This document shows, one piece after another, positions 2,915 to 17,252 of a stretch of 60,713 nt of DNA. The notes below the pieces were generated by a model. It was not told the origin of the DNA and made no database searches. It worked only from the letters and a program-made list of their open reading frames with translations. Location of the stretch: contig JBAZMQ010000009.1 of NCBI GenBank assembly GCA_041649675.1, positions 1 through 60,713 on the forward strand. Direction: 5' to 3'. The position numbers and the translations under genes were made by a program. This DNA is from Patescibacteria group bacterium (GTDB lineage Bacteria; Patescibacteriota; Patescibacteriia; Buchananbacterales; UBA6539). Each line of letters starts with the position of its first letter. Within the stretch, counting starts at the first letter, position 1.

Positions 2915-3859
2915 TTACAAAGTTGTAATTGGTCTTGACTGAGTAATATAAAATTTCCCTTTGGCTAAAGCCCATTCAATATCTTGAGGTTTTTTATAAT
3001 GTTTTTCTATTTGCAAACAAATTTTAGCCAACTGATTAATTTGCCAGCCGCTTAATTTCTGCTTACTTGACTGGTTGCTACTAATTAATTTCCAGGTATT
3101 ACCGCTCTCACCTTTTCTCACCAACATTTTTTCTTGCTTGGCAATATTTACGTCCTCTAAACCAAGATTGCTTTTGTTAATAATATAGCTATCGGGCGTA
3201 ATTTGACCCGAAACGATTGCTTCGCCCAAGCCAAATCCCGCCTCAATGATCATTTGGTTTTTGTTTTTAGTCACCGGATGAACCGTAAAAGCAATGCCGG
3301 AAACTTGGGACTCAACCATTTTTTGAATTACCACGGCGACTGAAACTTTGGAATTGCGCATCCCTTTTTCAAAACGATAAAAAATTGCCCGCGGCGTAAA
3401 AAGCGATGACCAGCATTGTTTAACTTTTCCCAACAAATTCTTTTCCGTAGTATTTAAATAAGTTTCCAGCTCACCGGCCCAACTAGCTTGACTGGAATCT
3501 TCGGCGGTGGCCGAGGAACGCACAGCGACAAATTTGGAATTCAAAGCTTTGAAGGCCGCTAAAACTTCTTGCTGCAAATCTTTTGGCATTTTGGCATCGT
3601 GGATTAAATCACGAATTGTATTTGAAGCTTTATCCACGGCATTGATATTTTTATAATTTATTTTATTAAGCTGAGTTTCGACTTCAACATTCAAATCAGT
3701 TTCAGCCAAAAACCGCTCAAAGGCAGTAGCCAAAACCACAAAGCCCGGCGGGACCGGAATTTTGTTTTGCGTCATTTCGCCCAGCGAAGCACCCTTGCCA
3801 CCGGCAATTTTTACGTCACCTTTGCTAATTTGTAAAAAATTTAAAATAAATTTTGCCAT
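2915..3859 (-). CDS. Stand-alone PEP synthase/PPDK N-terminal ATP-grasp (nucleotide-binding) domain protein
   Basis: GDVKIAGGKGASLGEM..IPVPPGFVV and the rest match the PPDK_N layout. No swivel or PEP-binding domain is attached. The ATG at 3859 (MAKFILNF) is preferred over the listed 3931 start, which reads through hairpin repeats. Confidence 0.8.
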   Translation of the reverse strand: MAKFILNFLQISKGDVKIAGGKGASLGEMTQNKIPVPPGFVVLATAFERFLAETDLNVEVETQLNKINYKNINAVDKASNTIRDLIHDAKMPKDLQQEVLAAFKALNSKFVAVRSSATAEDSSQASWAGELETYLNTTEKNLLGKVKQCWSSLFTPRAIFYRFEKGMRNSKVSVAVVIQKMVESQVSGIAFTVHPVTKNKNQMIIEAGFGLGEAIVSGQITPDSYIINKSNLGLEDVNIAKQEKMLVRKGESGNTWKLISSNQSSKQKLSGWQINQLAKICLQIEKHYKKPQDIEWALAKGKFYITQSRPITTL

Positions 3860-3937: not shown

Positions 3938-4268
3938 TTATAAAAAAAGTAATATTTTCTCAATTACCCCTTCTAAATTTTGGTCAATTTCATTATTCCA
4001 AAACCTAACGACTTTATAGCCTTTATTTTCCAAATATTTTTGTCTTTCTTGGTCTTTAACTATATTTACCTCTTCATTGTGATGACTGCCATCAAGTTCA
4101 ATAACTATTTTATTCTTAAATACAACAAAAATCAACAATGTATTTATCAATTTTATATTGTCGCCTGAATTTCAAATCAGCAATGTTTCTATTTTTCAAT
4201 ACACTCCATAATTTTGCTTCCCAGGGAGTTTGGTTTCTTCTTAAAATAGTAGTAAGATGGATTCCCAT
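3938..4268 (-). pseudogene. DUF559-type endonuclease gene split by a 1-nt frameshift
   Basis: The ATG at 4268 gives MGIHLTTILRRNQTPWEAKLWSVLKNRNIADLKFRRQYKIDKYIVDFCCI*. A frame change near 4119-4135 (A5/T5 run at 4127-4131) joins it to FKNKIVIELDGSHHNEE...YKVVRFWNNEI (ORF 3938-4150). Together they give the usual DUF559 layout. Confidence 0.65.
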
Positions 4269-4336: not shown

Positions 4337-5758
4337 CTAGTAGCCTTGGGGTTTACCGTTTTTAATTAGAAAAAACTGGCTGCCGTCTTTTCGGTGACAT
4401 TCAACACTAATATCATTCATTAAAATCATATCGCAATGAACTTTGGCCGAATTATAGCTTGGATGTTTTTTAGACACACCCAGCGATCCGTTGCTACCAA
4501 AAGCAATATGAATGGTAGCGTATATTTTTTCCCCTTCGCTTGAACCAATATCTTTGTCATCCTTGCCTTCACAGGCAAAAGGATTTGAACCCACTCCCAA
4601 CTCAGCTAAACGGTAAGCGTCATTTTTAGCATTATTGCCGCCATTCAAATAAGCTTTGACCGATTCGGCTAAGGGATTACCGGAATCTTGGTCAATGCTT
4701 TGACCATTAATTTCAATAATTTCGCCCTCTCTGATAGTCAGCTTAAGCGGACCGTTAGCTTTTACCTGGTCTAACATATGCTCGCCGCCAATCGGCCCAT
4801 CGACTACCAATATTCCGTTACTGCCTTTCCAGTCCAGTGAACAAGCCCATTCACCAATCGGATAGTTGCCTAAAGAGCCGGGTTTAGAAAAATCTTCACT
4901 TTCATAACCTTTAGTTTCTTCAATCAATGATAGCCACAAATCAGTACCCTGAGCGGAAGTAATGTGAACTTTCTCTACATCTTTCATTAATTCATTAATC
5001 CGATTATCTCGCTCTAAAATTTCAGCCACTGGCGCTTCAACCGCTCCTTTAGTCAAAATATCATGAGGATTTTTTCCTTTGGTAATTGAAATTAGTCGGC
5101 AGGCATTCTTCCTGGCAAACTGCCTTAACTTTTCGTACTGTTCATCAGTCAACTGGTCTTCTAAAGCCATTAAGTGACCGTGCCCTTTAGCAGTTTTTAG
5201 TGCCGTATCTAAAATTTCGCGATCAGCTAAACCACGAATAGCCGCTCCGGTTTCTTTTGAATGAGAGCGCGACATTGAAGTAATAATCAAAATTGGCGAA
5301 CCGCGCAAACTTTCCATTTCGCCTAAAACATAATCACCCATATCTTGAGCTGACCTTGTGGTTTCGGACAAAACTCGAATCCTAAAATTACCCTTCGCTT
5401 TAGGTTGGCTGGTTCTGGTTTCTAGATCGGCCTGAATAGCGGCAATTAATTCTGGCTGGGCTTCAATTACACCGGTATCGGTAATTACCATCATGGTTTC
5501 GGAATTAGGATCAAAACCAAAAGAATCAATGACATTTTTAGCCACTACTTGCATCTGCTCTCTTTTTTTCAATGACTCCATATTTTCTGGCGGCGGATTA
5601 ACGCTTTCCATTACTGGTTCATCTTTTTGCACTCCCATTTCGGCTAAACTTTGATGGAGTTTTTCAACCTCACTGGAAACGTCATCGCTTGGATTATAAC
5701 CAGCCCTAGTTACTTCTTCAGGTGAATTATGACCAAAAAAATCTGCAAATTTACCCAT
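4337..5758 (-). CDS. M29 (aminopeptidase T/AmpS)-like metallopeptidase with a long N-terminal extension
   Basis: NYPIGEW, LAELGVGSNP, EGEKIYATIHIAFG and NSAKVHCDMIL line up with the conserved M29 motifs. Confidence 0.6.
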   Translation of the reverse strand: MGKFADFFGHNSPEEVTRAGYNPSDDVSSEVEKLHQSLAEMGVQKDEPVMESVNPPPENMESLKKREQMQVVAKNVIDSFGFDPNSETMMVITDTGVIEAQPELIAAIQADLETRTSQPKAKGNFRIRVLSETTRSAQDMGDYVLGEMESLRGSPILIITSMSRSHSKETGAAIRGLADREILDTALKTAKGHGHLMALEDQLTDEQYEKLRQFARKNACRLISITKGKNPHDILTKGAVEAPVAEILERDNRINELMKDVEKVHITSAQGTDLWLSLIEETKGYESEDFSKPGSLGNYPIGEWACSLDWKGSNGILVVDGPIGGEHMLDQVKANGPLKLTIREGEIIEINGQSIDQDSGNPLAESVKAYLNGGNNAKNDAYRLAELGVGSNPFACEGKDDKDIGSSEGEKIYATIHIAFGSNGSLGVSKKHPSYNSAKVHCDMILMNDISVECHRKDGSQFFLIKNGKPQGY

Positions 5759-5779: not shown

Positions 5780-6616
5780 TTAAAGTTTCCCTCGGTTAAT
5801 CCAAGCAACGGAAAATATTACTGGCCAAAGCCAATCCTTATTGTTCTTGGGCGTGTTATTCCAATAAACTCCTTGATTCAAATAGGCCAAACCAACCCAG
5901 CGCCAGCCGCCTAAATAGGTTAATCCTTTCATCCAAGTATTACCAATCATACCAATGGCAGGACAAATTAAAGTCCGGCCTTCCCAAACGGCTTTTTCAT
6001 ATTCAATATAGTATTCTTTGACATCATAGCCTTTCTCCTTTAATTCCTTAGCCACGGTTTCGCAGCGCTCAGCAATTTCTTCCAATAAACCAAACTCCCC
6101 AACCCGACCAGTGGGCCGCCGGGTGCTAGTAATGGCAATCGTTGGCTTAATGCCTAAATTGCTTTCCAGCCACTGGATTGTCTGCCAAATTTCGGATCGC
6201 TTGGTTTCTAAAGTTAGGCTGGAATAGTTTGAACAGCTAGTAGTGACAAACCACTGGCCATCCTTGGCTAAAAAACAAACCGGAATTTTTTCTTTATCTT
6301 CTGGCCGGTTATAAGCTTGCAAAAAAAGTTTATGGGTCTCTGAGTCTTTAAGTTGGCCGCGAATTACACCTTCAACTTTTTCAGACTTTAGCAAGTCAAC
6401 AATTATTTTGCTAGCCTCGGTTTCATTTTTAGTTTCAATACAATTTAAGCCATCAATTTTACAACCAACCACAATTAAATCGGCATAATCAACCGCTTGC
6501 TTTAAACTGCTGACTACTTCGGGGCTGGGATCAACAATACCAATGGCTAATTTACGGCACTTTTGTTTTGCTTCGCTTAAAAATCTTTTTTCAATTTCAC
6601 TCAATTTATAATCCAT
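5780..6616 (-). CDS. PTA_PTB (phosphate acetyl/butyryl-transferase)-like protein, paralog 1
   Basis: 278 aa and colinear with the neighbouring paralog. LICPAIGMIGNTWMKGLTYLGGW resembles the ..LI.PD.E.GNI.YK......GG motif of the family. Confidence 0.45.
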   Translation of the reverse strand: MDYKLSEIEKRFLSEAKQKCRKLAIGIVDPSPEVVSSLKQAVDYADLIVVGCKIDGLNCIETKNETEASKIIVDLLKSEKVEGVIRGQLKDSETHKLFLQAYNRPEDKEKIPVCFLAKDGQWFVTTSCSNYSSLTLETKRSEIWQTIQWLESNLGIKPTIAITSTRRPTGRVGEFGLLEEIAERCETVAKELKEKGYDVKEYYIEYEKAVWEGRTLICPAIGMIGNTWMKGLTYLGGWRWVGLAYLNQGVYWNNTPKNNKDWLWPVIFSVAWINRGKL

Positions 6617-6618
6617 AA

Positions 6619-7446
6619 TTATTTTTTGCTATTGCATAAAGCTACGGCGTGAATTATATGCCAAAAAAAATCTTTTTCATTACGCGTACCATCTTCATAA
6701 ACAATATCACCAACATTTAACTGATTACAGGCTAAAAATTCCCAACCACCGAGATAAAGCAATGACTTTATCCAGGAATTACCAACAGTCCCAATTGATG
6801 GCACAATTAAATTACAGCCTGCCCAAACCGCCGTTTCATATTCCATATAGTATTCCTTGGCGTCATAACCCTTGCTGATCAAATATTCATAAAATTTAGT
6901 GCATTGTTCGGTGATACTATCTAACAACTCAAATTTTCCTCTTTTGCTTGTTGGCCGCAGAATTCCCATTACGGCAATTTTTGGCTCCATACCAAATTTA
7001 TTTTTCATGTGCTCTATGGTATGTTCAACTTCGTAGATTTTATCTTCCAAAGTCATACCTTGATAAACCGAACAAGTTGTAACAAAAAAAGAATAATCCC
7101 CTTTTTTCATAATCGCTGTAAAAAGTTTGCGGTTACTGGGGATCGGTTCCATGTTAAACTCCCGATAAAATACATCTAGGGTTGTTGAGTCTTTTACCTG
7201 CCCGCGGACAATGCCTTCAACTTTTTTATCTTTTAACAACTTGATTAAAACTTCGCTGGCCTGATCTTGATCTGGCTCAACCAGATTTTCAAAACCGTCA
7301 ATCTGAGCGCCGACAACGACAATATCGGCGTATTTAGAGGCTTTCTTTAGACTAGCAATTGTTTCGGGAATCGGCCGCATAATAGCAATGGCAATTTTTC
7401 TTTTTTTGGTTTTAGCTTGGTCTAAAAATAGTTTGGCAAAATCCAT
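6619..7446 (-). CDS. PTA_PTB-like protein, paralog 2
   Basis: 275 aa. KIAIAIMRP.., EGIVRGQVKDS and NLIVPSIGTVGNSWIKSLLYLGGW. Tandem duplicate of 5780-6616. Confidence 0.45.
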   Translation of the reverse strand: MDFAKLFLDQAKTKKRKIAIAIMRPIPETIASLKKASKYADIVVVGAQIDGFENLVEPDQDQASEVLIKLLKDKKVEGIVRGQVKDSTTLDVFYREFNMEPIPSNRKLFTAIMKKGDYSFFVTTCSVYQGMTLEDKIYEVEHTIEHMKNKFGMEPKIAVMGILRPTSKRGKFELLDSITEQCTKFYEYLISKGYDAKEYYMEYETAVWAGCNLIVPSIGTVGNSWIKSLLYLGGWEFLACNQLNVGDIVYEDGTRNEKDFFWHIIHAVALCNSKK

Positions 7447-7452
7447 AAATTT

Positions 7453-8226
7453 TTAATCATTAAAAATAAAAATTGGTTCTTGATAATGACGAATTTTATT
7501 TTCCTCAAACCTCTTGGCAATCAATTTTTTTAGTTCTAAATTCTTTTGCCCTAATGATTTTTTATTTTTTAAAATTTCTAAGGGTATGTCAATTCTCAAG
7601 GCGCGACCGCTGATTACGTGCCGCGTAATTCCCGAAGGAATTTTTAGATTTTTTTGAGCGACTAAAATAATATCCTTAGGTTTGAATTTAGGGAAAATAA
7701 TCAAAGTTTTGTTTCTACTAACAACGGAAAGGTTATTTTCATTATCAAAACGGTAAAATTTATATTTGTTTTTATAAATAGCGGCAATTTTATTCAAAGA
7801 CTGAACTTGCTCAAAAAAATTTTTGGTTTTTATCGGTAAGCAAATTATCTTATTGCCCTGCAACTTAAAATTGGCCCTTGCCGATTTAAGTAAGGCCTTA
7901 CTAATTTTTGCAAAAAAACTTTTAACGGGTAAACCAACGACTAAATGATTCCAAGTCTTTAATTCCAAGCCAGGCTGGGAATAATTTACAACTTGGACCA
8001 AAATATCTTTGTAACCTAAACTTTTAAAAACCGTTGTCCGGTTAGCCCCGTCCAAAACTACAAATTTATTTGACTTACCAATTGGCGCCACTAACGGCGG
8101 ATTGGTAAAAATCCGATCCTGTTTAATCTTTGCCATCAATCGTTTAACCCTCAAGGGATCAACGTCTTCGTGCAAAACCAAACTGTTCAAACTAACAATT
8201 TTTAGATTTGGTAAATTATTACTCAT
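7453..8226 (-). CDS. ParB/sulfiredoxin-fold domain protein
   Basis: LVLHEDVDPLRVKRLMAKIKQDRIFTNPPLV....FVVLDGANRTTVFKSLG follows the HE...DG..R layout of ParB-like N-terminal domains, including the SerK/SbnI-type kinases. DGANR replaces the usual DGHHR. Confidence 0.45.
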   Translation of the reverse strand: MSNNLPNLKIVSLNSLVLHEDVDPLRVKRLMAKIKQDRIFTNPPLVAPIGKSNKFVVLDGANRTTVFKSLGYKDILVQVVNYSQPGLELKTWNHLVVGLPVKSFFAKISKALLKSARANFKLQGNKIICLPIKTKNFFEQVQSLNKIAAIYKNKYKFYRFDNENNLSVVSRNKTLIIFPKFKPKDIILVAQKNLKIPSGITRHVISGRALRIDIPLEILKNKKSLGQKNLELKKLIAKRFEENKIRHYQEPIFIFND

Positions 8227-8864
8227 GATTTTTTTATTAACTCTTTTTCATTAGCCAATAAATCGGAAAGGCTGCCGATTTGATAATACTCATTATCTTT
8301 AATCAAACCGGAGTTACTGTTTAAAATATGATAAATTCGATAAGAAAAATCAACATATTTATCCTGAAATGATTTTACCGCTTGCAAAAACATTTGGCAA
8401 TTAGCCAATTTATCGTCAGTATAAACAATTACCCTGTAACCTTGTTGGTATTTCTCAGTTAAATAGTTTGCCACCATTTCTGGAGTTTTTTTGTTCGTTT
8501 CACCAAAATCAAAAGTTGAATTAATTTTTTGAAAATACGGCCGGAAATCAAAACCAGTCTTTGGCAGCAAACATTCTGCACGCCAATCCATTTGTTCTGG
8601 CGTGCCAGTTGTAAAAGTTTCATTATGTTTAGCCCACTCTAGAACTTCTTTAGCGCCCGGTTGCAAATCAAGTTGAAAATACCAACCTTGACTATAGGGT
8701 ATTTTCTGCATTTCTTCATATTCTCTGTCAGAAATCTCAGAAATATTTTTGCCTAACTGAGCCTCTAGCCAGGCATCATAAGTTGGCTGACCAGTTTTTT
8801 TAGCATCCCACTTCTCGTAAAAAATTGTCCCAGCCAGATCCCAAAGGTAAAGTGTTTTTATCAT
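8223..8864 (-). CDS. HAD-like hydrolase-fold protein (degenerate motif I)
   Basis: LWDLAGTIF resembles HAD motif I with the second Asp replaced by Ala. VIVYTDDKLAN resembles motif IV. ATGA-type 4-nt overlap with the next gene. Confidence 0.3.
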   Translation of the reverse strand: MIKTLYLWDLAGTIFYEKWDAKKTGQPTYDAWLEAQLGKNISEISDREYEEMQKIPYSQGWYFQLDLQPGAKEVLEWAKHNETFTTGTPEQMDWRAECLLPKTGFDFRPYFQKINSTFDFGETNKKTPEMVANYLTEKYQQGYRVIVYTDDKLANCQMFLQAVKSFQDKYVDFSYRIYHILNSNSGLIKDNEYYQIGSLSDLLANEKELIKKS

Positions 8865-8979: not shown

Positions 8980-10404
8980 TTATTTTTTCTTTAAAATAAT
9001 TACCAAACCGTGATTGGCTTTAACCTCCACTAAATCACCATCTTTTAAAACTTTAGTAGCAACTTTAGTACCGATGATACAAGGAATTCCTAACTCCCGA
9101 GAAATTATTGCGGCATGACAAGTTATTCCACCTTCATCAGTAATGATGGCCGAAACCAATCTCAGCGCTGGCATATATTCTGGTCTGGTCATTGAAGCAA
9201 CAATTATATCTCCTGACTTAATTTTTTTAAGGGATCGCAATGTCGTACAAATTTTAACATGACCAACTACCGTACCAACCGAGGCAGTCATACCGGTAAT
9301 TTCCTTAACTTCAGCTATCTTTTTTTGGTAAAACTTTTTAGTAAACTCCTGAGCCGGCTTACCAGTTAAGACTATTGGGTTTTTCTGATTATAAATATAA
9401 ACACATCTTTTACTCCGGCGTACTAATTGTTTTCTAAAATCTTTAGATTTAAAATTTGCTAATGTTAATTCATAAGGAATCGAAAATCTTAAGTAATTAA
9501 TATCAATTTTAAATCTTTTGGCAACTACTGCCAATAATCTGTCTAAATAATCAATTGCCAGTAAAGCATTTTCTTTTCTTTCATCTTGAAAACTGGTTAA
9601 AAACTCAGTAATTTTGACTAACTCGACTAAAGAGCTAGGCAGCTTTAGCTCTTTGATTAATTGGCGTTTCTGCTGAATAATCTCATTAAAATTGGTTCTT
9701 TTTAAATTTATTAATGATCTAGATTCTCTAAGAATTTCACCAATTGTAAGATTATATTTTCCAGCATAGCTATTTCTAACCCAAAAATACTTTTTTAAAA
9801 GATTTTTGGCCAAGGTTATTTTTTTAGCCTTATTTTTTTCTAAAGCGATAATTTTTAAATTGTCTTCATAACTTTTAACAAATGACACTTTAATTGGTGA
9901 CATTAAAAGTGAAAATTTTTGATTCAGTTCCTTTGGGCTATTTAAGTACTTGGACAATTCTTGCTTGATCTTGACATCAGTAGTCAAAACAAAAGGCTCA
10001 ATTACGTGCGCAACACCAACCGCAAAAGCTTCTCTTTTTGAACCTTCATTAATTAATCCAATTAAATCATTGTTAGATATTTTGGCTAAATTTATTTGAT
10101 CAATCTTTCTAAAAAATACTTTCGATTCGGCCATTTGGCATAAATAAATTTTTCTAATTTTCACAAAAAAATTCTTATCCTTTTTCAGCTTGGTTATAAT
10201 TTTTTGACCTAAAATATCAAGATCGTTTACATAATAATGATAATCACCGTAATTATTTTTATAAAGCAACAAAAAATAACTATATGTAAAACCCAATTCT
10301 TTTTCCATTACCTTGCAGCTTTCTGCTGCCGACACAAGATGAACAAGAGTTGAGTTAAAGCCTTGACTGTACCATTTTGCTTTTAATGCTTGATTTAAAT
10401 CCAT
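8980..10404 (-). CDS. PEP-utiliser swivel (phosphohistidine) domain protein with a variable helical N-terminal domain, paralog 1
   Basis: C-terminus is IITDEGGITCHAAIISRELGIPCIIGTKVATKVLKDGDLVEV. No ATP-grasp or PEP-binding TIM-barrel part. Confidence 0.8.
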   Translation of the reverse strand: MDLNQALKAKWYSQGFNSTLVHLVSAAESCKVMEKELGFTYSYFLLLYKNNYGDYHYYVNDLDILGQKIITKLKKDKNFFVKIRKIYLCQMAESKVFFRKIDQINLAKISNNDLIGLINEGSKREAFAVGVAHVIEPFVLTTDVKIKQELSKYLNSPKELNQKFSLLMSPIKVSFVKSYEDNLKIIALEKNKAKKITLAKNLLKKYFWVRNSYAGKYNLTIGEILRESRSLINLKRTNFNEIIQQKRQLIKELKLPSSLVELVKITEFLTSFQDERKENALLAIDYLDRLLAVVAKRFKIDINYLRFSIPYELTLANFKSKDFRKQLVRRSKRCVYIYNQKNPIVLTGKPAQEFTKKFYQKKIAEVKEITGMTASVGTVVGHVKICTTLRSLKKIKSGDIIVASMTRPEYMPALRLVSAIITDEGGITCHAAIISRELGIPCIIGTKVATKVLKDGDLVEVKANHGLVIILKKK

Positions 10405-10405
10405 A

Positions 10406-11494
10406 TTATTTTCTTTTTAAAATCGTTACCACCCCATGATTAGCATCAACTTCAACCAAGTCACCATCTTTTAAAACCCGAGTCGCAATTTTTGTCCCAA
10501 CAATGCTTGGAATCTTTAATTCTCTGGCAACAATCGCAGCATGGCTAGTCACGCCACCTTCATCAGTAATGATGGCCAAAACTTTGTTCAGAAATGGTAC
10601 GTAACTAATCGTAGTCATTGGCGTAACTAATACCATACCCTTTTTAATATTCCTTAAATCAGTAACCGAATAGGCCACTTTGACAAGTCCAACCACCCGC
10701 CCGGCATAAGCGGCTTGGCCAAAAATAACATTCGTTTCTTCTTTATAGATTACAAAACTAAGCTTTGCTTGGACTAATTTTGCCGTTTGACCAAAGAAAA
10801 ATTTTATCTGTCGGTTAACCGCTATTAAAATATAAAAATTTTGGCGCCGCTTTAACTCACCAATGCCAACAATTGCTGAATTATTCTGCAATGACTTAGC
10901 TAACTCCTGGTAATTCATACCCAAAATCAACTCTTTAGGTATGCCTAAAATTTGGCCTAAATTTTGCTTAATTTTTTCTAAAGTACTTTTGTCAGTTTTG
11001 GTAAAAAATTTACCGCATTGGTCTTTGGTTTGGGCGAATTTAGAAACTAAATCGACTTTATGTTTTCCCTGGTAAAAATGGTCAAAAAGAGTTGAAAAAC
11101 GATAAACTGAATATAAACTACGATAACTGTTATAGAATAAATCAAGGGCCTTTGCCATTTCTTGAACTGACAGTTTCTTTTTTTCCAACAGCTTGTTGAC
11201 TTTCAAAATTACTTTTTTCGTTTCAACTAGCTGAGTCAAAATTATTTGGTTAACTTTTAAAAAATAACTTTTATTTTTTTTATTACAAAATTGGTTAATT
11301 TTTTTTTGATCACTAAGCGAACCATAAACAGTCAAAATATTTTTTTTAGAAATCAAAAGCTGATCGCGATAGCCCCAACCGATTCTTCTTGGCATGTCTT
11401 TAATATAACCATCAAAAGCCAGGCTGGCAATAAAATAACTAAAGCCTTCACGAGTGAAAATCGGATCCCAGGTAGTTTTTTTAATATTTACCAT
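10406..11494 (-). CDS. PEP-utiliser swivel domain protein, paralog 2
   Basis: C-terminus is IITDEGGVTSHAAIVARELKIPSIVGTKIATRVLKDGDLVEV. 1-nt gap to paralog 1. Confidence 0.8.
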   Translation of the reverse strand: MVNIKKTTWDPIFTREGFSYFIASLAFDGYIKDMPRRIGWGYRDQLLISKKNILTVYGSLSDQKKINQFCNKKNKSYFLKVNQIILTQLVETKKVILKVNKLLEKKKLSVQEMAKALDLFYNSYRSLYSVYRFSTLFDHFYQGKHKVDLVSKFAQTKDQCGKFFTKTDKSTLEKIKQNLGQILGIPKELILGMNYQELAKSLQNNSAIVGIGELKRRQNFYILIAVNRQIKFFFGQTAKLVQAKLSFVIYKEETNVIFGQAAYAGRVVGLVKVAYSVTDLRNIKKGMVLVTPMTTISYVPFLNKVLAIITDEGGVTSHAAIVARELKIPSIVGTKIATRVLKDGDLVEVDANHGVVTILKRK

Positions 11495-11498
11495 AAAT

Positions 11499-12962
11499 TC
11501 ATAACCAATTAATTAAATCTTGCGCCAAGATATCGGTAGTCACCTGGTATTTAATTTTTTCATCGTCTGGAATATATTTTTGCGCGATATAGTCATAAGT
11601 CCCGGTAACTGATACGGCCAACAAATCACTAAATTTCATTTCAAAAGCTTGTTTCAAGTATTGAGCCGACATTCCGCCATTATAAATAATGTCATAAGCA
11701 TACAAAGTCTTTATCTGATTGGTGATTCTTTCAAAAAACAAAGCCAGTCCGGAAACCATATAATCAATTTCATAAGATTTGATATTGTCAATTTCTGCTT
11801 TGAATTCCGTTTGCTCTAACGTTTTAAGCCACTGATCTCTTATCAAATTTAAATAGACAATTGAACCTTGCCCGACTAGCGGCTTAATGCCAAAGTAAAA
11901 ATTTAATACGGCAAAAATCATAAATAAACTGGGAAAAATTTCTCTTTTCTCAAGCAAATTTCTTATTTCGTTTAGATCAAAATTTACGCTCAAATTTTTA
12001 AACTCCTCATCACCCGGAACAAGCTTGTCAGCGCTGACATACATTCTTAGCAGCTTATTTTCTGTTGGGTGCTTGCGCCAAAAAAAGTGAGTTCCTTTGT
12101 TTTCTTTTTCGTTCCACGTCACGACTATGCCCCGAAAATCAGCTAAAATCTTTTCTCGATATTGCCGGTTGAACAAAATTTCAGTAACAAAATTTTTCTC
12201 CGCCAAAATTTTTAATAAGCAATTAGTTGTCAATTCTTCTTGGGTGATATATAAAAGCTCCGGTAAATTTTTTCTGATTTCAGAAGCAAATAAACGAGGC
12301 CAGGAATCATTAACAATCAACGTAATTTGGTCATTATAATTATTACAATTGGAAAAATCCAAAGATTTAATCCGCTCATATTCTCCGACCAAAAATTGTT
12401 GTTCCTTGTCATTAAGCTCACTCCAGCGTTTTGATTTTTTTATTCGCCCGACAAAGTCAAAATCCCGTTTAGGAATCAAGCAGGAATTTAGCTCCGTTTC
12501 GCTATTGGAAAAAATTGGCACTTTCTTACCATGGAGCTGAAAGCCATTTTTGCTAAAATAGTTATTCGGCGGAACGTCGCCGCTGGAAATGACGATGATC
12601 GCCGGTGGCTTCTGGTCTTGAAAAAATTTGCCAATGTTGGCAATCACGTTGTCAGAAATCAACAACGGATGATTTAAAACCTGATGATGGTCAACAATAT
12701 TATTCGCCAGCTGCTGGTCAAAATTAATATTTAATTTTTTCTGACAGTCTTTTCCGAACAATGTTTTAAACTTATTCAACATTTCCTTTTTAACAATTTC
12801 CTGCCTTTTGGCGTAAACCGGATTATGCTTGAATTTATAAATGCCATCAGAGTATTGCCTCAAGGTCAAATTAATTTCAAAAAATCGTTTAAAAATTGGC
12901 GAATATTTCTTGATTTGTGCAATCATTAAATCTTTTTCTTTTTCAATTTGTTGCTTGTTCAT
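11499..12962 (-). CDS. Hypothetical protein embedded in the swivel-domain array (no swivel domain)
   Basis: 487-aa intact ORF, tightly packed (3-4 nt gaps on both sides). No motif recognised. Confidence 0.5.
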   Translation of the reverse strand: MNKQQIEKEKDLMIAQIKKYSPIFKRFFEINLTLRQYSDGIYKFKHNPVYAKRQEIVKKEMLNKFKTLFGKDCQKKLNINFDQQLANNIVDHHQVLNHPLLISDNVIANIGKFFQDQKPPAIIVISSGDVPPNNYFSKNGFQLHGKKVPIFSNSETELNSCLIPKRDFDFVGRIKKSKRWSELNDKEQQFLVGEYERIKSLDFSNCNNYNDQITLIVNDSWPRLFASEIRKNLPELLYITQEELTTNCLLKILAEKNFVTEILFNRQYREKILADFRGIVVTWNEKENKGTHFFWRKHPTENKLLRMYVSADKLVPGDEEFKNLSVNFDLNEIRNLLEKREIFPSLFMIFAVLNFYFGIKPLVGQGSIVYLNLIRDQWLKTLEQTEFKAEIDNIKSYEIDYMVSGLALFFERITNQIKTLYAYDIIYNGGMSAQYLKQAFEMKFSDLLAVSVTGTYDYIAQKYIPDDEKIKYQVTTDILAQDLINWL

Positions 12963-12965
12963 AAA

Positions 12966-14339
12966 TTATCTTAATTTTATTATTATTCCCTTATTAGCAT
13001 CAACCTCAATCAAATCACCATCTTTTAAGACTTTGGTAGCAATTTTAGTACCCACGACACAAGGAATTCCCAGCTCCCGGCTGACAATGGCAGCATGACA
13101 AGTTATTCCGCCTTCATCGGTAACTATTGCTTTGCAGATTCTCATCTTTGGCAAATAGTCTGGATGAGTCGTAATTGCCACCATGATATCACCTTTTTTG
13201 GTTTTAATGATATCGCGGTCAAACTTAACTATTCTCACTCTCCCTTTAGCCTGACCGACACAAGCTGTTATTCCTTTAATTTCTCGGGATACTTTTCTGC
13301 TTTCCTTAATTAAATTTAAATAATATCTTGCTTTTCTACCAGTCAAAAAGGCTAGCCTCCCTTCTTGCAAAATTAAAATACCTTGCTGCTTACGTCTCTG
13401 GATTTCTTCTTTAGAGATTGGCTTGCCTTGAAGAAATTCAATAATCTCTGGCGTAGAAAATAAAATCAAGTCCTGATATTTGATCTTTAAACGTCGGCTG
13501 ATTTTCTCAAATATAAAATGAAATATATAAACGCCTTTGCGCCTAATCTCGTCGCGATAATCCCTCAAATAAACCAACTCCTGATTAATCTTGATAGACT
13601 TTGTCTGTTGATTATTAATCTTTAAATCATTTTTTAATTTTAGAAAAGATATTTTTTCTGAATCAACCGGCTTAAATTGTTTAACATAATTTCTAAAATC
13701 GTTTTTGGTCCAAGGTTTTGCATTCAAATCATTATAAGGCAACCACTGATACTTACGATAAAGCCGATCAATCGGAATAGCTTGTCCTCTTTTTTTGTAT
13801 TTAACAATTTCTTGCTCAAAAATAAAAATTGATGCTTTTTTTACTGGCTGATTAACTGTAGATAAATAATCATTAATTTTTTCCAACCCAGACAAAGATG
13901 CCGCTTGCTTTGCGATAAAATTATTGACAATCTCTGCTTGGTGCTCACCTAAAACAAAAGCCCAATAAACATATTTAGCAAAAACTAACCATGGCTTATA
14001 ATAATCCTGTAAAATTTTAACTAATTGTTGATTACTTGAAGCGGAAAAATCAAGATTCCTATATTTCTTTGCCGTCTGGAGATAATTTTGGCAGGAATTA
14101 TTAAATTCTTTTTTAAAAACTCTAAATTTTTTTTGGTCTGCCAAGTATTTTCTGGCTAATGACCAATAAAGTCGTTCCTTTATCTTTTCTTCAGTTACAG
14201 CAACAGAAAGTCCCTGATAAAAAGTAAAAAAAGCAAATGGTAAATTAAATCCTGCAGCCTGAGAGACTAAAATTTGTAGCAAAGTTTCATTATAATGAAC
14301 GGAATAATCCCGCGACCAAAGTTTTGCATACCTCTTCAT
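12966..14339 (-). CDS. PEP-utiliser swivel domain protein, paralog 3
   Basis: C-terminus is IVTDEGGITCHAAIVSRELGIPCVVGTKIATKVLKDGDLIEV. ATGA overlap with paralog 4. Confidence 0.8.
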   Translation of the reverse strand: MKRYAKLWSRDYSVHYNETLLQILVSQAAGFNLPFAFFTFYQGLSVAVTEEKIKERLYWSLARKYLADQKKFRVFKKEFNNSCQNYLQTAKKYRNLDFSASSNQQLVKILQDYYKPWLVFAKYVYWAFVLGEHQAEIVNNFIAKQAASLSGLEKINDYLSTVNQPVKKASIFIFEQEIVKYKKRGQAIPIDRLYRKYQWLPYNDLNAKPWTKNDFRNYVKQFKPVDSEKISFLKLKNDLKINNQQTKSIKINQELVYLRDYRDEIRRKGVYIFHFIFEKISRRLKIKYQDLILFSTPEIIEFLQGKPISKEEIQRRKQQGILILQEGRLAFLTGRKARYYLNLIKESRKVSREIKGITACVGQAKGRVRIVKFDRDIIKTKKGDIMVAITTHPDYLPKMRICKAIVTDEGGITCHAAIVSRELGIPCVVGTKIATKVLKDGDLIEVDANKGIIIKLR

Positions 14340-15793
14340 ATTTTTCTTACTACTCCTTTGTTGGCATCAACCTCTACTTTATCCCCGGTTTTAAATACTT
14401 GAGTAGCGACCTTGGTCCCAACTATACCAGGAATTCCCAACTCCCGCGAGACAATCGCGGCATGACAAGTTACCCCGCCGTCATCGGTCACAATGGCCCC
14501 GGCCCGCTGCATAGCAGGCAAAAAATCAACTGCCGTCATGGTCGTTATCAAAATTTCGCCTTTTTTTAAAAATTTAACCGCTGCTTTGGCACTTTTGGTC
14601 ACAAACGCTAAGCCTTTTACTTTTCCTAGCGAAGCAATTTCACCAGTGACTTGGGAAGAATGTTTTGATTTTAATGTCTCCAAAACCAACTTGGTTAAAA
14701 CTTTATTTGCCTTGGGTCCAATATATTTTTCAACCTTCCCATTTTTACTGACCCAGGTAATCCCCTTTTTTCTTTTTTGAATTAAAGTTAAATCCAGCTT
14801 CTGTCTTTTCAAACACAAATTTTTTATCTCGGCGTCAAAATAATACAAGAGATTGTTATAATTGACATCAAATCTTTTAGCTATCTCTTTGAGGGCAGAA
14901 AAAATAATTTGATTACATCTCATTTGGCTTTCTTTTCGCCGATCATGCAAAATAACAAAAGTATCTAAAAGATTAAAATAAGGTTTCAGCTCAGCCTGGG
15001 CTAATTTATATTTTTTTAAAATTTGATTCCTCTCGGCTTTAACTTGCCCGGAAAAACCATTGATTTTTTGCAATTTTTTTCGCCGGTCATTGATATTTAT
15101 TTTTTTTAATTTGGCTAAATCTTTTTTTACTTGATCAGAAGTCAACTCATTGCTGCCATCCCAGCTCATGGCAATCCAAGCAAAATTTCTGACTAATTGG
15201 TGCAAAGCCAGCAATGTATAACTTTTGGTCATAGAGATTTCTAAAACTCTTTTTTGATATTTTAAACTTTCGGTCGTTTGGGCTGGGATTAAAAGTTTTA
15301 CCAGATCAGTTTGATCAATTTTTTCCCTAGTCATCTTTCTTAATTTCTCGCTAAAAATCTGGTTAAAAAAATCATCAAATAAATCCACGCCGTATTCATT
15401 AAAAACAACATTATTCAAAAAAATATTTTTAGTTTGGCTAAACAATTTATACAATTCTTGATCTGATATGGTTTTTACTTTTATCTGTTTTAGCTGAGGC
15501 AAAATATTTTTTGTTTGATTCTCTAAATTATTAAAAAAAATCAAAAAATCGTTAAATTTTCTTTTTGAGACCAGCCAATTACCTATCCACTTTCCCGCCG
15601 TTTTTTCTATAGCATCAGCGTCCCTGGCCCACCAAAGATAACCATTCTTAAAAGCTATAACGTCATAATGATTAGCCAAGTAAGGATACTTTTTGTTTGG
15701 TTTTAATTGGATTAAATTAAGATAAGCCGAAACACTTTGAGGCTGAACTGAGTCCCGCTCATAGACTCGCCAATTAGTTTGTTTTGTAGTCAT
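14336..15793 (-). CDS. PEP-utiliser swivel domain protein, paralog 4
   Basis: C-terminus is IVTDDGGVTCHAAIVSRELGIPGIVGTKVATQVFKTGDKVEV. The ATG at 15793 (MTTKQTNW) is preferred and leaves a 1-nt gap to the upstream stop. Confidence 0.8.
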   Translation of the reverse strand: MTTKQTNWRVYERDSVQPQSVSAYLNLIQLKPNKKYPYLANHYDVIAFKNGYLWWARDADAIEKTAGKWIGNWLVSKRKFNDFLIFFNNLENQTKNILPQLKQIKVKTISDQELYKLFSQTKNIFLNNVVFNEYGVDLFDDFFNQIFSEKLRKMTREKIDQTDLVKLLIPAQTTESLKYQKRVLEISMTKSYTLLALHQLVRNFAWIAMSWDGSNELTSDQVKKDLAKLKKININDRRKKLQKINGFSGQVKAERNQILKKYKLAQAELKPYFNLLDTFVILHDRRKESQMRCNQIIFSALKEIAKRFDVNYNNLLYYFDAEIKNLCLKRQKLDLTLIQKRKKGITWVSKNGKVEKYIGPKANKVLTKLVLETLKSKHSSQVTGEIASLGKVKGLAFVTKSAKAAVKFLKKGEILITTMTAVDFLPAMQRAGAIVTDDGGVTCHAAIVSRELGIPGIVGTKVATQVFKTGDKVEVDANKGVVRKI

Positions 15794-15794
15794 A

Positions 15795-17252
15795 TTATTT
15801 AATTTTTTTAACCCAGCCCTTAATTGTATCAACTTGAACTAAATCACCATCTTTTAAGACTTTAGTAGCAATTTTAGTCCCAACAATGCAAGGAATGCCT
15901 AATTCGCGCGAGACAATAGCCGCATGAGAAGTCATGCCACCTTCGTCGGTCACAATCGCAATGGCTTTTTTAATCACTATAATAAATTCGGGCGCAGTCA
16001 TTGGTGCAACCAGGATTTCACCCTTTTTCATTTTGGAAAAATCAGTGGCTGAAGTTAAAATTCTGGCTCGACCCAAAACGGTCTTACCGCGACTCACGAC
16101 TAAACCTTTAAATTCTTTCAAGCTTTTGTTAATTTTAATCTTGGTAAATTCTAAAATTATTTTTTTGGCCAAAGCGCCAGATATATATTGAAGCTTATTT
16201 TCCTCTTGGCTATAATGAGCTATTAGATAACGACGCCGCTTGGCTATTTCCGCGGGTGTTAATTTTTTATTTTTTTCCGCTAAACTCAAAATTTCAAAAT
16301 AATTATAGTAATGCAATGACTCAAAATCAATATCATAACGCCGGCTGAATTCGGTCAAAAACAAATCAATATAATGATTGGCCAAAAAAATATAAAATTT
16401 TCGCAAATCCTGCCACCAAACACAAAAGGCTAAACGGTTGGCAATCTTTAAAATTTCATTATTTAATCTATAATTTTTAGCCAGGGCTTCTTTTTCTTGC
16501 TTTACTTTTACCGAATGAAATTCAAGCTCATTTACTTTTTTTCTCAACTCATTTTTATTGTATTTTAATAATTCCTGCTCAAAATATTTAACACTTAAAA
16601 CTTGGGTATGGTGATAACTGTTCAAAATCCAAAAATATTTTTTTTGGTACTCATTAATTTTTTGATCAAATACTTTTTTGTTATTAATTAATTTCTTTAA
16701 TCTAATTAAATCCAGATCGGCTTTTTGATAAAATGACAACCGCTGAGGCGCTGACAATCTTTCAAAAACTTTAATGAAATCGCTTGACGGTACTATTTTT
16801 CCCAACTTATCTTTTAAAATTATTTCCCCGCCATAATTGGCAACTTCAGGCAATAAACCAATAGTCCAAAAATCCAAATAACCATCCGACCATTTCTTAA
16901 ACACTGAATACAACTCTTGATTGCTAAGTTTTTTTAAACGATTGGCTGATATCGCCTTTTGATATTTTAACCAATTACCCAAAATATTTTGCCAACGCTG
17001 ATAATTAGTTTTAAATTTTTTATCATTAAGAACCGACTGCTCAAAATTTTTGCTGCCATTGTCAACCAAGGCTTGATTGTCAGTAATTGCTGTCATTTTT
17101 TCTTCAGTCATCAACCATAAAACATCAGGCCAGCTGACAAATTCCTTGGAAAACTTAGTAAAAGCAACATTAAAAAAATCCGGGTAAATTAATTTACCAT
17201 CAATCGGACCCCAACGAAATAATTCTTTTTTGGGGTCAATGTCTATTTTCAT
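15795..17252 (-). CDS. PEP-utiliser swivel domain protein, paralog 5
   Basis: C-terminus is IVTDEGGMTSHAAIVSRELGIPCIVGTKIATKVLKDGDLVQV. Confidence 0.8.
   Translation of the reverse strand: MKIDIDPKKELFRWGPIDGKLIYPDFFNVAFTKFSKEFVSWPDVLWLMTEEKMTAITDNQALVDNGSKNFEQSVLNDKKFKTNYQRWQNILGNWLKYQKAISANRLKKLSNQELYSVFKKWSDGYLDFWTIGLLPEVANYGGEIILKDKLGKIVPSSDFIKVFERLSAPQRLSFYQKADLDLIRLKKLINNKKVFDQKINEYQKKYFWILNSYHHTQVLSVKYFEQELLKYNKNELRKKVNELEFHSVKVKQEKEALAKNYRLNNEILKIANRLAFCVWWQDLRKFYIFLANHYIDLFLTEFSRRYDIDFESLHYYNYFEILSLAEKNKKLTPAEIAKRRRYLIAHYSQEENKLQYISGALAKKIILEFTKIKINKSLKEFKGLVVSRGKTVLGRARILTSATDFSKMKKGEILVAPMTAPEFIIVIKKAIAIVTDEGGMTSHAAIVSRELGIPCIVGTKIATKVLKDGDLVQVDTIKGWVKKIK

Follow-up and report, generated by a model that had tools for sequence, protein, structure and literature searches.

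A 60.7-kb stretch of DNA from an ultra-small Patescibacteria group bacterium, hereafter the window, contains at positions 8980-17252 six abutting open reading frames (ORFs) on the minus strand, five of which, termed units S1 to S5, end in a PF00391 phosphohistidine swivel domain. These form part of a single string of genes, all on the minus strand, that runs in the order MurA, Ctp, S1, S2, S3, gene X, S4, S5, a HAD-like protein, an SbnI/SerK-like protein, two MtxX-like paralogs with a phosphotransacetylase (PTA) fold, an M29-like protein and a standalone ATP-grasp (PPDK_N) gene (Table 1). The array of units and its candidate ATP-grasp partner are the subject of this analysis. A sequence-only reading had described five co-directional, nearly abutting ORFs of 362-498 amino acids (aa) with spacings of 1-4 nucleotides (nt). 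The five swivel ORFs are present as described, but gene X, between S3 and S4, had been overlooked, and the spacings hold only when it is counted, not for the five swivel ORFs alone. The supposed 498-aa ORF, S2, is probably shorter (Table 1); its ortholog is 486 aa long in the closest relative, a Buchananbacteria metagenome-assembled genome (MAG; locus L005) with a MurA 87% and an S1 68% identical to those of the window. Relatives are cited below by our locus (L) and protein (P) handles.

Table 1. Genes of the array, the ATP-grasp gene and the intervening genes in the window
Feature	Position	Strand	Length (aa)	Description
Unit S1	15795..17252	-	485	Helical substrate-type domain and C-terminal His-swivel; PF00391 E 2.9e-26
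Unit S2	14336..15793	-	485	Length from ATG at 15793; mechanical ORF from TTG at 15832; PF00391 E 6e-23
Unit S3	12966..14339	-	457	PF00391 E 1.5e-25
Gene X	11499..12962	-	487	Not of the unit family; BshC-like or class-I-synthetase-like fold
Unit S4	10406..11494	-	362	Short form; PF00391 E 2e-25
Unit S5	8980..10404	-	474	PF00391 E 2.2e-24
Standalone ATP-grasp (PPDK_N) subunit	2915..3859	-	314	PF01326 E 3.8e-99
HAD-like protein	8223..8864	-	213	'DLAGT' motif instead of DxDxT
SbnI/SerK-like (ParB-fold) putative small-molecule kinase	7453..8226	-	257	NCBIfam SbnI and SerK, below cut-off
MtxX/Mmp4-like PTA-fold protein	6619..7446	-	275	TIGR03270 E 1.9e-14
Second MtxX-like paralog	5780..6616	-	278	TIGR03270 E 6.8e-12
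M29-like protein	4337..5758	-	473	PF02073 E 4e-8
Frameshifted DUF559 endonuclease-like gene	3938..4268	-		Repaired translation matches PF04480 E 1.7e-38

The swivel domain is recognised by Pfam at the end of all five units (E-values of 6e-23 to 3e-26), with its His 42-45 residues, and hence within about 50, of the C terminus; the C-terminal motif proposed from the sequence alone fits each of the five, and the catalytic His (H443 in S1) is invariant. Identity among the five swivel domains is 57-69% in protein, 60-71% in DNA and 30-53% at third codon positions. The DNA-level similarity previously pointed out between 9037-9150 and 13016-13130 is real (93 of 114 nt), although, because third-codon identity is just 30-53%, it reflects constraint on the protein and not gene conversion. 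Both the swivel domains and the ATP-grasp domain are closest in sequence to those of phosphoenolpyruvate (PEP) synthase, including the GGxT[SC]HAAI motif. The residue two before the His is Thr, as in PEP-synthase-type swivels, whereas rifampin phosphotransferase (RPH) and HpeH, the corresponding subunit of a split enzyme discussed below, have Met.

This likeness, and the naming of some members as 'phosphoenolpyruvate synthase/pyruvate phosphate dikinase' in their sources, could suggest that the units are pieces of an ordinary PEP synthase (PpsA) or pyruvate phosphate dikinase (PPDK), either split from a TIM barrel encoded elsewhere or decaying. We regard this as already refuted and give it almost no credence. 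In agreement with the sequence-only reading, none of the five units has a Pfam match to PPDK_N or to the PEP/pyruvate TIM barrel (PF02896), and no TIM barrel was found in the window by a tblastn search with the C-terminal part of a relative's PpsA-like protein (best E 0.85; the query being residue 471 onward of a 790-aa ORF that was assigned by BLAST and by reading its sequence, with Pfam not run). Nor is there a TIM barrel among the Pfam matches for seven related loci, the loci of the wider survey described below not having been scanned for one. Against the PEP synthase model TIGR01418, which has a cut-off of 739.75 bits, the units score 98-114 bits and the ATP-grasp protein 334 bits. In place of the TIM barrel each unit carries a helical domain of 280-380 aa that is absent from PEP synthase and folds confidently, and one relative (L010) has a separate 790-aa PpsA-like ORF besides its array. 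Having no TIM barrel and scoring far below the cut-offs, the units are thus misannotated when they are called 'PEP synthase'. Decaying ppsA/ppdK fragments, an outcome that the sequence-only reading had said would count against it, were likewise not what the relatives showed: a profile of the five N-terminal domains in the window retrieves 3,415 clusters at 50% identity (1,554 at E <= 1e-10), thousands of them intact members of constant length, mostly 470-490 aa, and the His is kept in nearly all of the 184 family ORFs of the survey.

The N-terminal domains of the five units are 20-27% identical. They had been described as diverged almost beyond recognition, which is fair as to identity but too strong as to homology, still detectable by tblastn (E 1e-10 and 3e-8); 138 of 165 N-terminal domains from the family fall in one BLAST cluster at >= 60 bits. 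An AlphaFold2 model of S1, made with 55 homologs, has a pLDDT of 95.3 and a pTM of 0.92. When this model was compared with the PDB using Foldseek, six RPH entries ranked first (E 3e-10 to 3e-12), headed by 5fbu, 5fbs and 5fbt. RPH was the only full-length match, four of the six entries reaching a TM-score of 0.52-0.58 over 540-570 columns; other PDB entries, enzyme I among them, matched the swivel part only (TM-score <= 0.21). The comparison with the rifampin-binding domain that had been proposed as a check hence relates the S1 model to both the helical and the swivel domains of RPH. The same fold is assigned to S2-S5 by homology to S1, with S4 lacking one sub-domain. A sequence profile of the helical domain found no match in the PDB, the relation to RPH being visible by fold comparison only.

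Across 164 units, the conserved polar positions are, in S1 numbering, W14, D282-x-R284-K285, E301, R305, E320 and R339 (96%). The second phosphotransfer of RPH requires Arg666, Glu667 and Lys670 of its helical domain (PMC4844700). By extrapolation from an alignment of RPH with L042, a relative in which the modules are fused, the Asp-x-Arg-Lys motif would fall within about six residues of this RPH triad, a tentative equivalence. S1, S2 and S5 keep D282, R284, K285 and R339, and S3 keeps D282, R284 and R339. In S4, S1 positions 143-266 are missing and Cys-Gly replaces the Arg-Lys pair, but the swivel His is retained. The unit is a conserved short form: its ortholog in L005 has 371 aa and is 63% identical, and other family proteins of 362-365 aa are known (P0056, P0058 and P0061). 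S4 could thus serve as a carrier or a regulator instead of acting as a kinase.

A unit that keeps its His without the putative catalytic pair would suit a different explanation, in which the units are phospho-carriers of a signalling or regulatory relay, akin to VadK or to enzyme I of the phosphotransferase system (PTS), and pass His~P to proteins. A PPDK-derived regulatory autokinase, VadK, does exist in mycobacteria (PMC13400623), and the swivel domain is common to PTS enzyme I. Such a relay nevertheless seems distinctly improbable, given that the full-length fold match is to a small-molecule kinase while enzyme I matches the swivel only, that the conserved polar constellation lies within the helical domain, and that the companion genes encode metabolic enzymes (PTA, HAD and acyltransferase). 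VadK (Rv1127c) resembles the system in combining an ATP-grasp domain and a swivel His without a TIM barrel, in a role other than PEP synthesis, but it is a single chain, has no RPH-type helical domain and acts in regulation through protein partners.

The window contains one PPDK_N gene, as judged by tblastn and Pfam. Its product aligns over its full length with PEP synthase (8a8e, E 6e-74) and with RPH's ATP-grasp domain (E 3e-67), and it keeps the motifs GGKGASLGEM, VRSSATAED and QDIEW, which hold Lys22, Arg117 and Glu297 in RPH (compared with PMC4844700). The 400-bp gap that precedes the gene contains the frameshifted DUF559 gene, which is edged by G+C-rich inverted-repeat-like sequence and separates the M29-like gene from the ATP-grasp gene. 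At the corresponding junction in L005, where the whole string is contiguous, the DUF559 gene is absent and the ATP-grasp gene begins 4 nt after the M29-like gene; the ATP-grasp gene that had been called an orphan therefore belongs to the cluster. The M29-like gene also adjoins PPDK_N in L015 and L035.

Relatives were collected by scanning species-representative genomes with an alignment of the S1 N-terminal domain, which yielded 47 loci in which ORFs were called and classified by BLAST. The bacterial loci are from Patescibacteria (Buchanan-, Kuenen-, Falkow-, Nealson- and Berkelbacteria, and Saccharibacteria) and the archaeal loci from DPANN lineages (Woese-, Nano- and Micrarchaeota), and the family seems to be restricted to very small symbionts, bacterial ones of the Candidate Phyla Radiation (CPR) and archaeal ones of DPANN. 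The number of units per locus ranges from one to nine, with a median of four in the 22 bacterial loci and two in the 25 archaeal loci. Of the 47 loci, 16 have a standalone PPDK_N gene (281-334 aa) at a distance of up to 10 kb. No locus had more than one, even with nine units, among the 47 scan loci and the first context loci.

The survey of fused and split versions that had been called for revealed, besides these arrays, relatives in which one ATP-grasp domain is fused to between one and four units. An ORF of L042 (793 aa) comprises PPDK_N and one unit in the RPH order of ATP-grasp, helical domain and swivel; PPDK_N is joined to two units in P0100 (1341 aa) and to three in both P0073 (1836 aa) and P0167 (1667 aa), and P0099 (2309 aa) consists of three units, PPDK_N and a further unit. 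Other chains carry no ATP-grasp domain: P0069 (1500 aa) has three units, P0064 (1836 aa) a unit, a PTA_PTB domain and two more units, and P0170 (706 aa) a unit and a HAD domain. The giant polyproteins of 1,300-2,300 aa with two to four units, with or without ATP-grasp, lie on DPANN-type contigs (L055:6001-11511, L057:2012-8941 and L031:3897-7871) and are open in the standard code. That the fusions might be artefacts of stop-codon reassignment was rejected, all seven long ORFs tested being open in translation table 11 (P0073, P0064, P0099, L042, L029, L031 and L050; the test did not take in P0100, P0167, P0069 or P0170). The fused ATP-grasp domains are 55-62% identical to the window protein in four of five cases and 41% in P0099. 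In L010 the standalone gene is 65% identical to it, against 38% for the ATP-grasp domain of the 790-aa PpsA-like ORF there, whose TIM barrel was not checked with Pfam. These fusions, with ATP-grasp domains that resemble the window protein, are the strongest available evidence that one ATP-grasp serves several units. Along with the linkage in L005 and the limit of one standalone PPDK_N per locus, the fusions support, at the level of sequence, the earlier proposal that several units may share the ATP-grasp protein.

The same proposal held that the substrate-domain half had been amplified five-fold, and there are indeed multiple paralogs, but the phrase misleads: sequence comparison indicates that the paralogs in the window are ancient classes, each of which has orthologs elsewhere. 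A recent origin by tandem amplification, or gene conversion, was rejected on the third-codon identity given above and on the grouping of units with orthologs from other genomes and not with their neighbours; of 137 units, only 10 have their best swivel match, and 2 their best N-domain match, within the locus they come from. S1 is the most conserved class and is found in essentially every related locus, with orthologs 35-68% identical in the 47 loci. S2 has orthologs 46-70% identical in L001, L005-L008 and L013. S3 is the most isolated, its best N-domain matches being 25-27% identical, and has no close ortholog among the fetched loci. The nearest relatives of S5 are archaeal, that in an archaeal MAG (L032:9198-10598) being 45% identical, and its single named close homolog is from Woesearchaeota; because a bacterial S5 is closest to archaeal proteins, transfer between the bacterial and archaeal domains is suggested within the family. 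Overall, the classes form 67 clusters at >= 150 bits.

The presence of up to four units in a single chain, in some cases alongside PTA or HAD, the overlaps of 1-4 nt between array genes and the conserved companions, which suggest a pathway, could all be accommodated if the units worked as stations within one assembly, in which a single substrate or a chain of intermediates is modified at more than one position, together with the PTA-fold and HAD proteins. We think this unlikely. Copy number varies from one to nine even among close relatives, with three units in L005 and five in the window; the minimal locus, L009, consists of S1, an MtxX-like gene and PPDK_N; and the great variability in class composition is more in keeping with a toolbox than with a fixed machine.

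The domain content, fold, gene linkage and fusions observed here are best explained, with a probability that we put at about two-thirds (0.68), by the locus encoding a split, one-to-many small-molecule dikinase of the rifampin-phosphotransferase or phenylphosphate-synthase type. The suggestion of an RPH- or PpsA-like architecture split in two is borne out by the modelled fold of S1 and the separate PPDK_N gene: because S1 matches RPH in the rifampin-binding domain and swivel, and the ATP-grasp gene is separate, the units correspond to that half of RPH. The phosphotransfer route that we infer would begin with ATP bound by the ATP-grasp protein. The swivel of a unit would then dock, and its His (GGxT[SC]H) would accept the beta-phosphate, the gamma-phosphate leaving as Pi and AMP remaining. 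The swivel domain would next swing back to its own helical domain, where the phosphate would be handed to a bound small molecule, with the Asp-x-Arg-Lys motif and other Arg and Glu residues probably acting as Arg666, Glu667 and Lys670 do in RPH. Because their helical domains are only 20-27% identical, S1, S2, S3 and S5 would each be expected to have a different substrate, with one common ATP-grasp partner, and the PTA-fold enzyme and HAD-like protein probably process what the units have phosphorylated.

Split RPH-like dikinases have been described before, namely the phenylphosphate synthase PpsAB of Thauera, CreHI of Corynebacterium and HpeHI of Rhodococcus (PMC12167813). In HpeHI, HpeI is the ATP-grasp subunit and HpeH the helical and swivel subunit, in which a change of the His abolishes activity (PMC12167813). 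The window shares with all three a separate ATP-grasp subunit and an RPH-type helical and His-swivel subunit and, by analogy, would be expected to convert ATP to AMP, Pi and a phosphorylated substrate via His~P. These enzymes are 1:1 adjacent pairs that act on phenolics in aromatic catabolism; the window instead has one ATP-grasp gene and five units (up to nine elsewhere) lying 5 kb apart, without 1:1 adjacency. Its units are about 480 aa long rather than about 600 aa, have Thr and not Met two before the His, and occur in CPR and DPANN hosts without a context of aromatic catabolism. RPH itself is composed of the same three modules and shares the overall helical and swivel fold, and the L042 protein is fused in the same order. 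It differs in that the window genes are split, that their helical domain has no detectable sequence similarity to it and that RPH never has two to four helical and swivel units per ATP-grasp, as fused relatives of the window family can. On the RPH model NF041857 the units score 51-77 bits and the ATP-grasp protein 287 bits, against a cut-off of 999. The NF006153 and related PRK08296 models, which are presumably of the PpsA/HpeH type (the NCBIfam description reads 'hypothetical protein'), align with nothing but the swivel region and give 86-101 bits, where the cut-offs are 578-730. Single-chain relatives of RPH include the PigC/RedH/HapC ligases and, presumably, B. subtilis YvkC.

Several points weigh against a shared, RPH-like dikinase. 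Between the array and the ATP-grasp gene lie 5 kb with five other genes and the DUF559 insertion, and the search for ATP-grasp genes covered the 60-kb window, so that a second copy may lie elsewhere in the genome. By sequence comparison the swivel and ATP-grasp domains are nearer to PEP synthase than to RPH and keep the Thr two before the His, a regulatory site in PEP synthase, and in the model the helical domain resembles that of RPH in fold alone, with a root-mean-square deviation of about 9 Å. The two-component enzymes described so far pair their subunits 1:1, and no stable complex forms between HpeH and HpeI. With S4 lacking the Arg-Lys pair and about 120 residues, the 'five specificities' may really be four. 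Finally, the loci were picked by homology to S1 and with 10-kb flanks, which biases the counts.

The companion genes give some indication of what might follow phosphorylation. Eight archaeal loci have a canonical phosphotransacetylase (PF01515, E 4e-80), in seven of them within or directly beside the array, and in some its start or stop codon overlaps those of array genes; in L017 the order is S-S-PTA-S1-PPDK_N, with the PTA at L017:1917-2891. PTA is fused between swivel units once (L056:4315-9825). In the window the MtxX-like proteins, which are 43% identical and encoded in tandem, take the equivalent place. A profile of the one at 6619-7446 matches MTH_231 (9nzy, E 1e-19) and phosphate butyryltransferase (7vg9, E 7.5e-9), and its alignment to an array-embedded archaeal PTA by hhalign has a probability of 94% (E 1.4e-7); on these profile similarities, it has the PTA fold and is the bacterial counterpart of the archaeal PTA. 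The function of MtxX, a 'methanogenesis marker', is unknown (PMC12978539). HAD-like orthologs lie inside or beside arrays in at least eight bacterial loci and are a conserved companion. The window HAD-like protein has no Pfam match, its assignment being a motif read by eye. HAD-like proteins recognised by motif occur in bacterial and archaeal loci; the archaeal one likewise has no Pfam HAD match, with a weak SerB match (E 5.5e-6). The unit-HAD fusion P0170 matches PF00702 (E 4e-13). Archaeal loci also recurrently contain a hexapeptide acyltransferase and a TrmB-type regulator. Taken in context, the companions suggest that acyl-phosphate or acyl-CoA chemistry would follow the reaction of the units. 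A comparable arrangement, by analogy and not homology, is that of the fatty-acid kinase FakA and several FakB proteins, where one nucleotide-using kinase component works with several paralogous substrate-binding proteins that differ in specificity and the acyl phosphate product is handled by the PTA-fold PlsX; FakA and FakB differ in having unrelated folds and mechanism and no phosphohistidine swivel, and FakB lacks a catalytic residue.

A PTA-fold gene embedded in arrays, and fused to units in P0064, might also mean that the swivel His is charged from another donor, either an acyl phosphate made by the PTA or PEP, with the ATP-grasp protein only loosely associated. HpeH alone is able to move phosphate between phenolic substrates (PMC12167813). 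This explanation is nonetheless very improbable, as ATP-grasp is fused to units in five independent architectures and the standalone ATP-grasp lineage tracks the arrays, as the values for L010 (65% against 38% for its PpsA-like ORF) illustrate. A reverse reaction forming ATP from acyl phosphate was set aside on textbook free energies, hydrolysis of acyl phosphate yielding about -43 kJ/mol against about -65 kJ/mol for ATP to AMP and 2 Pi.

A more far-reaching version of the split dikinase can be entertained, tentatively and as rather unlikely: the arrays would be a metabolite-activation hub specific to CPR and DPANN, in which one ATP-grasp 'charger' serves up to nine His-swivel modules, and carboxylates are converted to acyl phosphates and then to thioesters. 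The PTA-fold enzyme, the HAD protein and the archaeal hexapeptide acyltransferase would be part of the hub, and its substrates would be scavenged carboxylates or other host-derived metabolites. If true, this would be an unrecognised route of substrate activation in organisms without most biosynthesis, and would explain the near-universal 'PEP synthase' calls in glycolysis-free Nanobdellota (bioRxiv 10.64898/2026.05.13.725050).

The remaining neighbours touch less directly on the units. The SbnI/SerK-like protein matches SbnI over its full length (E 1.1e-28) and SerK (E 2.5e-15), both below cut-off; SbnI and SerK are free-serine kinases, and homologs of the window protein are syntenic with arrays in six bacterial loci, none having been noticed in archaeal loci. 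Gene X was considered as a degenerate swivel unit and this was rejected, its hhalign probability against the family being 0.5%; it has its own family and fold. No Pfam match exceeds the gathering cut-off, the weak SBP_bac_3 match (E 0.009, 16 bits) being the only one, and its AlphaFold2 model (pLDDT 94.6) best matches, in the PDB, the bacillithiol ligase BshC (4wbd, E 2.8e-5). Its 120 homologs, from Patescibacteria and Streptomyces, form a well-conserved family of constant length (about 487 aa), those of Streptomyces being 34-37% identical. Among related loci gene X lies within the array only here and in L005, and in other genomes its homologs stand in unrelated contexts without swivel genes; for instance, a Streptomyces homolog follows HypF-like and AIR-synthase-like genes, and one from Kerfeldbacteria precedes genes for a D-Ala-D-Ala-ligase-like ATP-grasp protein and an M19 dipeptidase. 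In one Patescibacteria lineage (L003:18625-21458 and L053:12369-16728) the array and ATP-grasp gene adjoin PrgI/TraC-like/DUF87 genes resembling type IV secretion, and this set and the array lie downstream of surface-type proteins of very large size (1,000-2,900 aa). A defence system was considered and rejected, eight cluster proteins having no PADLOC match. Elsewhere in the window, positions 21400-60713 hold mostly cell-envelope genes, including several GT1/GT2/GT4 glycosyltransferases, two PMT_2 proteins, a Wzy_C-TPR protein, dTDP-sugar enzymes and an S8 peptidase with FG-GAP repeats. A search of the 60.7 kb with ARAGORN turned up no tRNA genes, and GC skew is negative throughout.

The split design itself was already known from PpsAB, CreHI and HpeHI. 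What is new is the one-to-many layout, the CPR- and DPANN-specific family with its more than 3,400 clusters, and the association with an enzyme of PTA fold; a literature search found no description of these arrays. A single ATP-grasp domain with several swivel modules, as in the 1:2, 1:3 and 1:4 fusions, extends the design of swivelling-domain dikinases beyond 1:1. Public labels such as 'PEP-utilizing enzyme' and 'PEP synthase' can introduce a spurious gluconeogenic step when metabolism is reconstructed. PEP synthase (K01007) has been listed among the few metabolic genes of Nanobdellota and in 54 of 54 glycolysis-free Pacearchaeales genomes (bioRxiv 10.64898/2026.05.13.725050), and these calls may belong partly to the TIM-barrel-less family. 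The family, at more than 3,400 clusters at 50% identity, is uncharacterised and common to ultra-small lineages of bacteria and archaea. Small genomes with few metabolic genes here spend about 7 kb on five units, and relatives carry up to nine; identifying their substrates would reveal what these symbionts obtain from their hosts or how they act on them.

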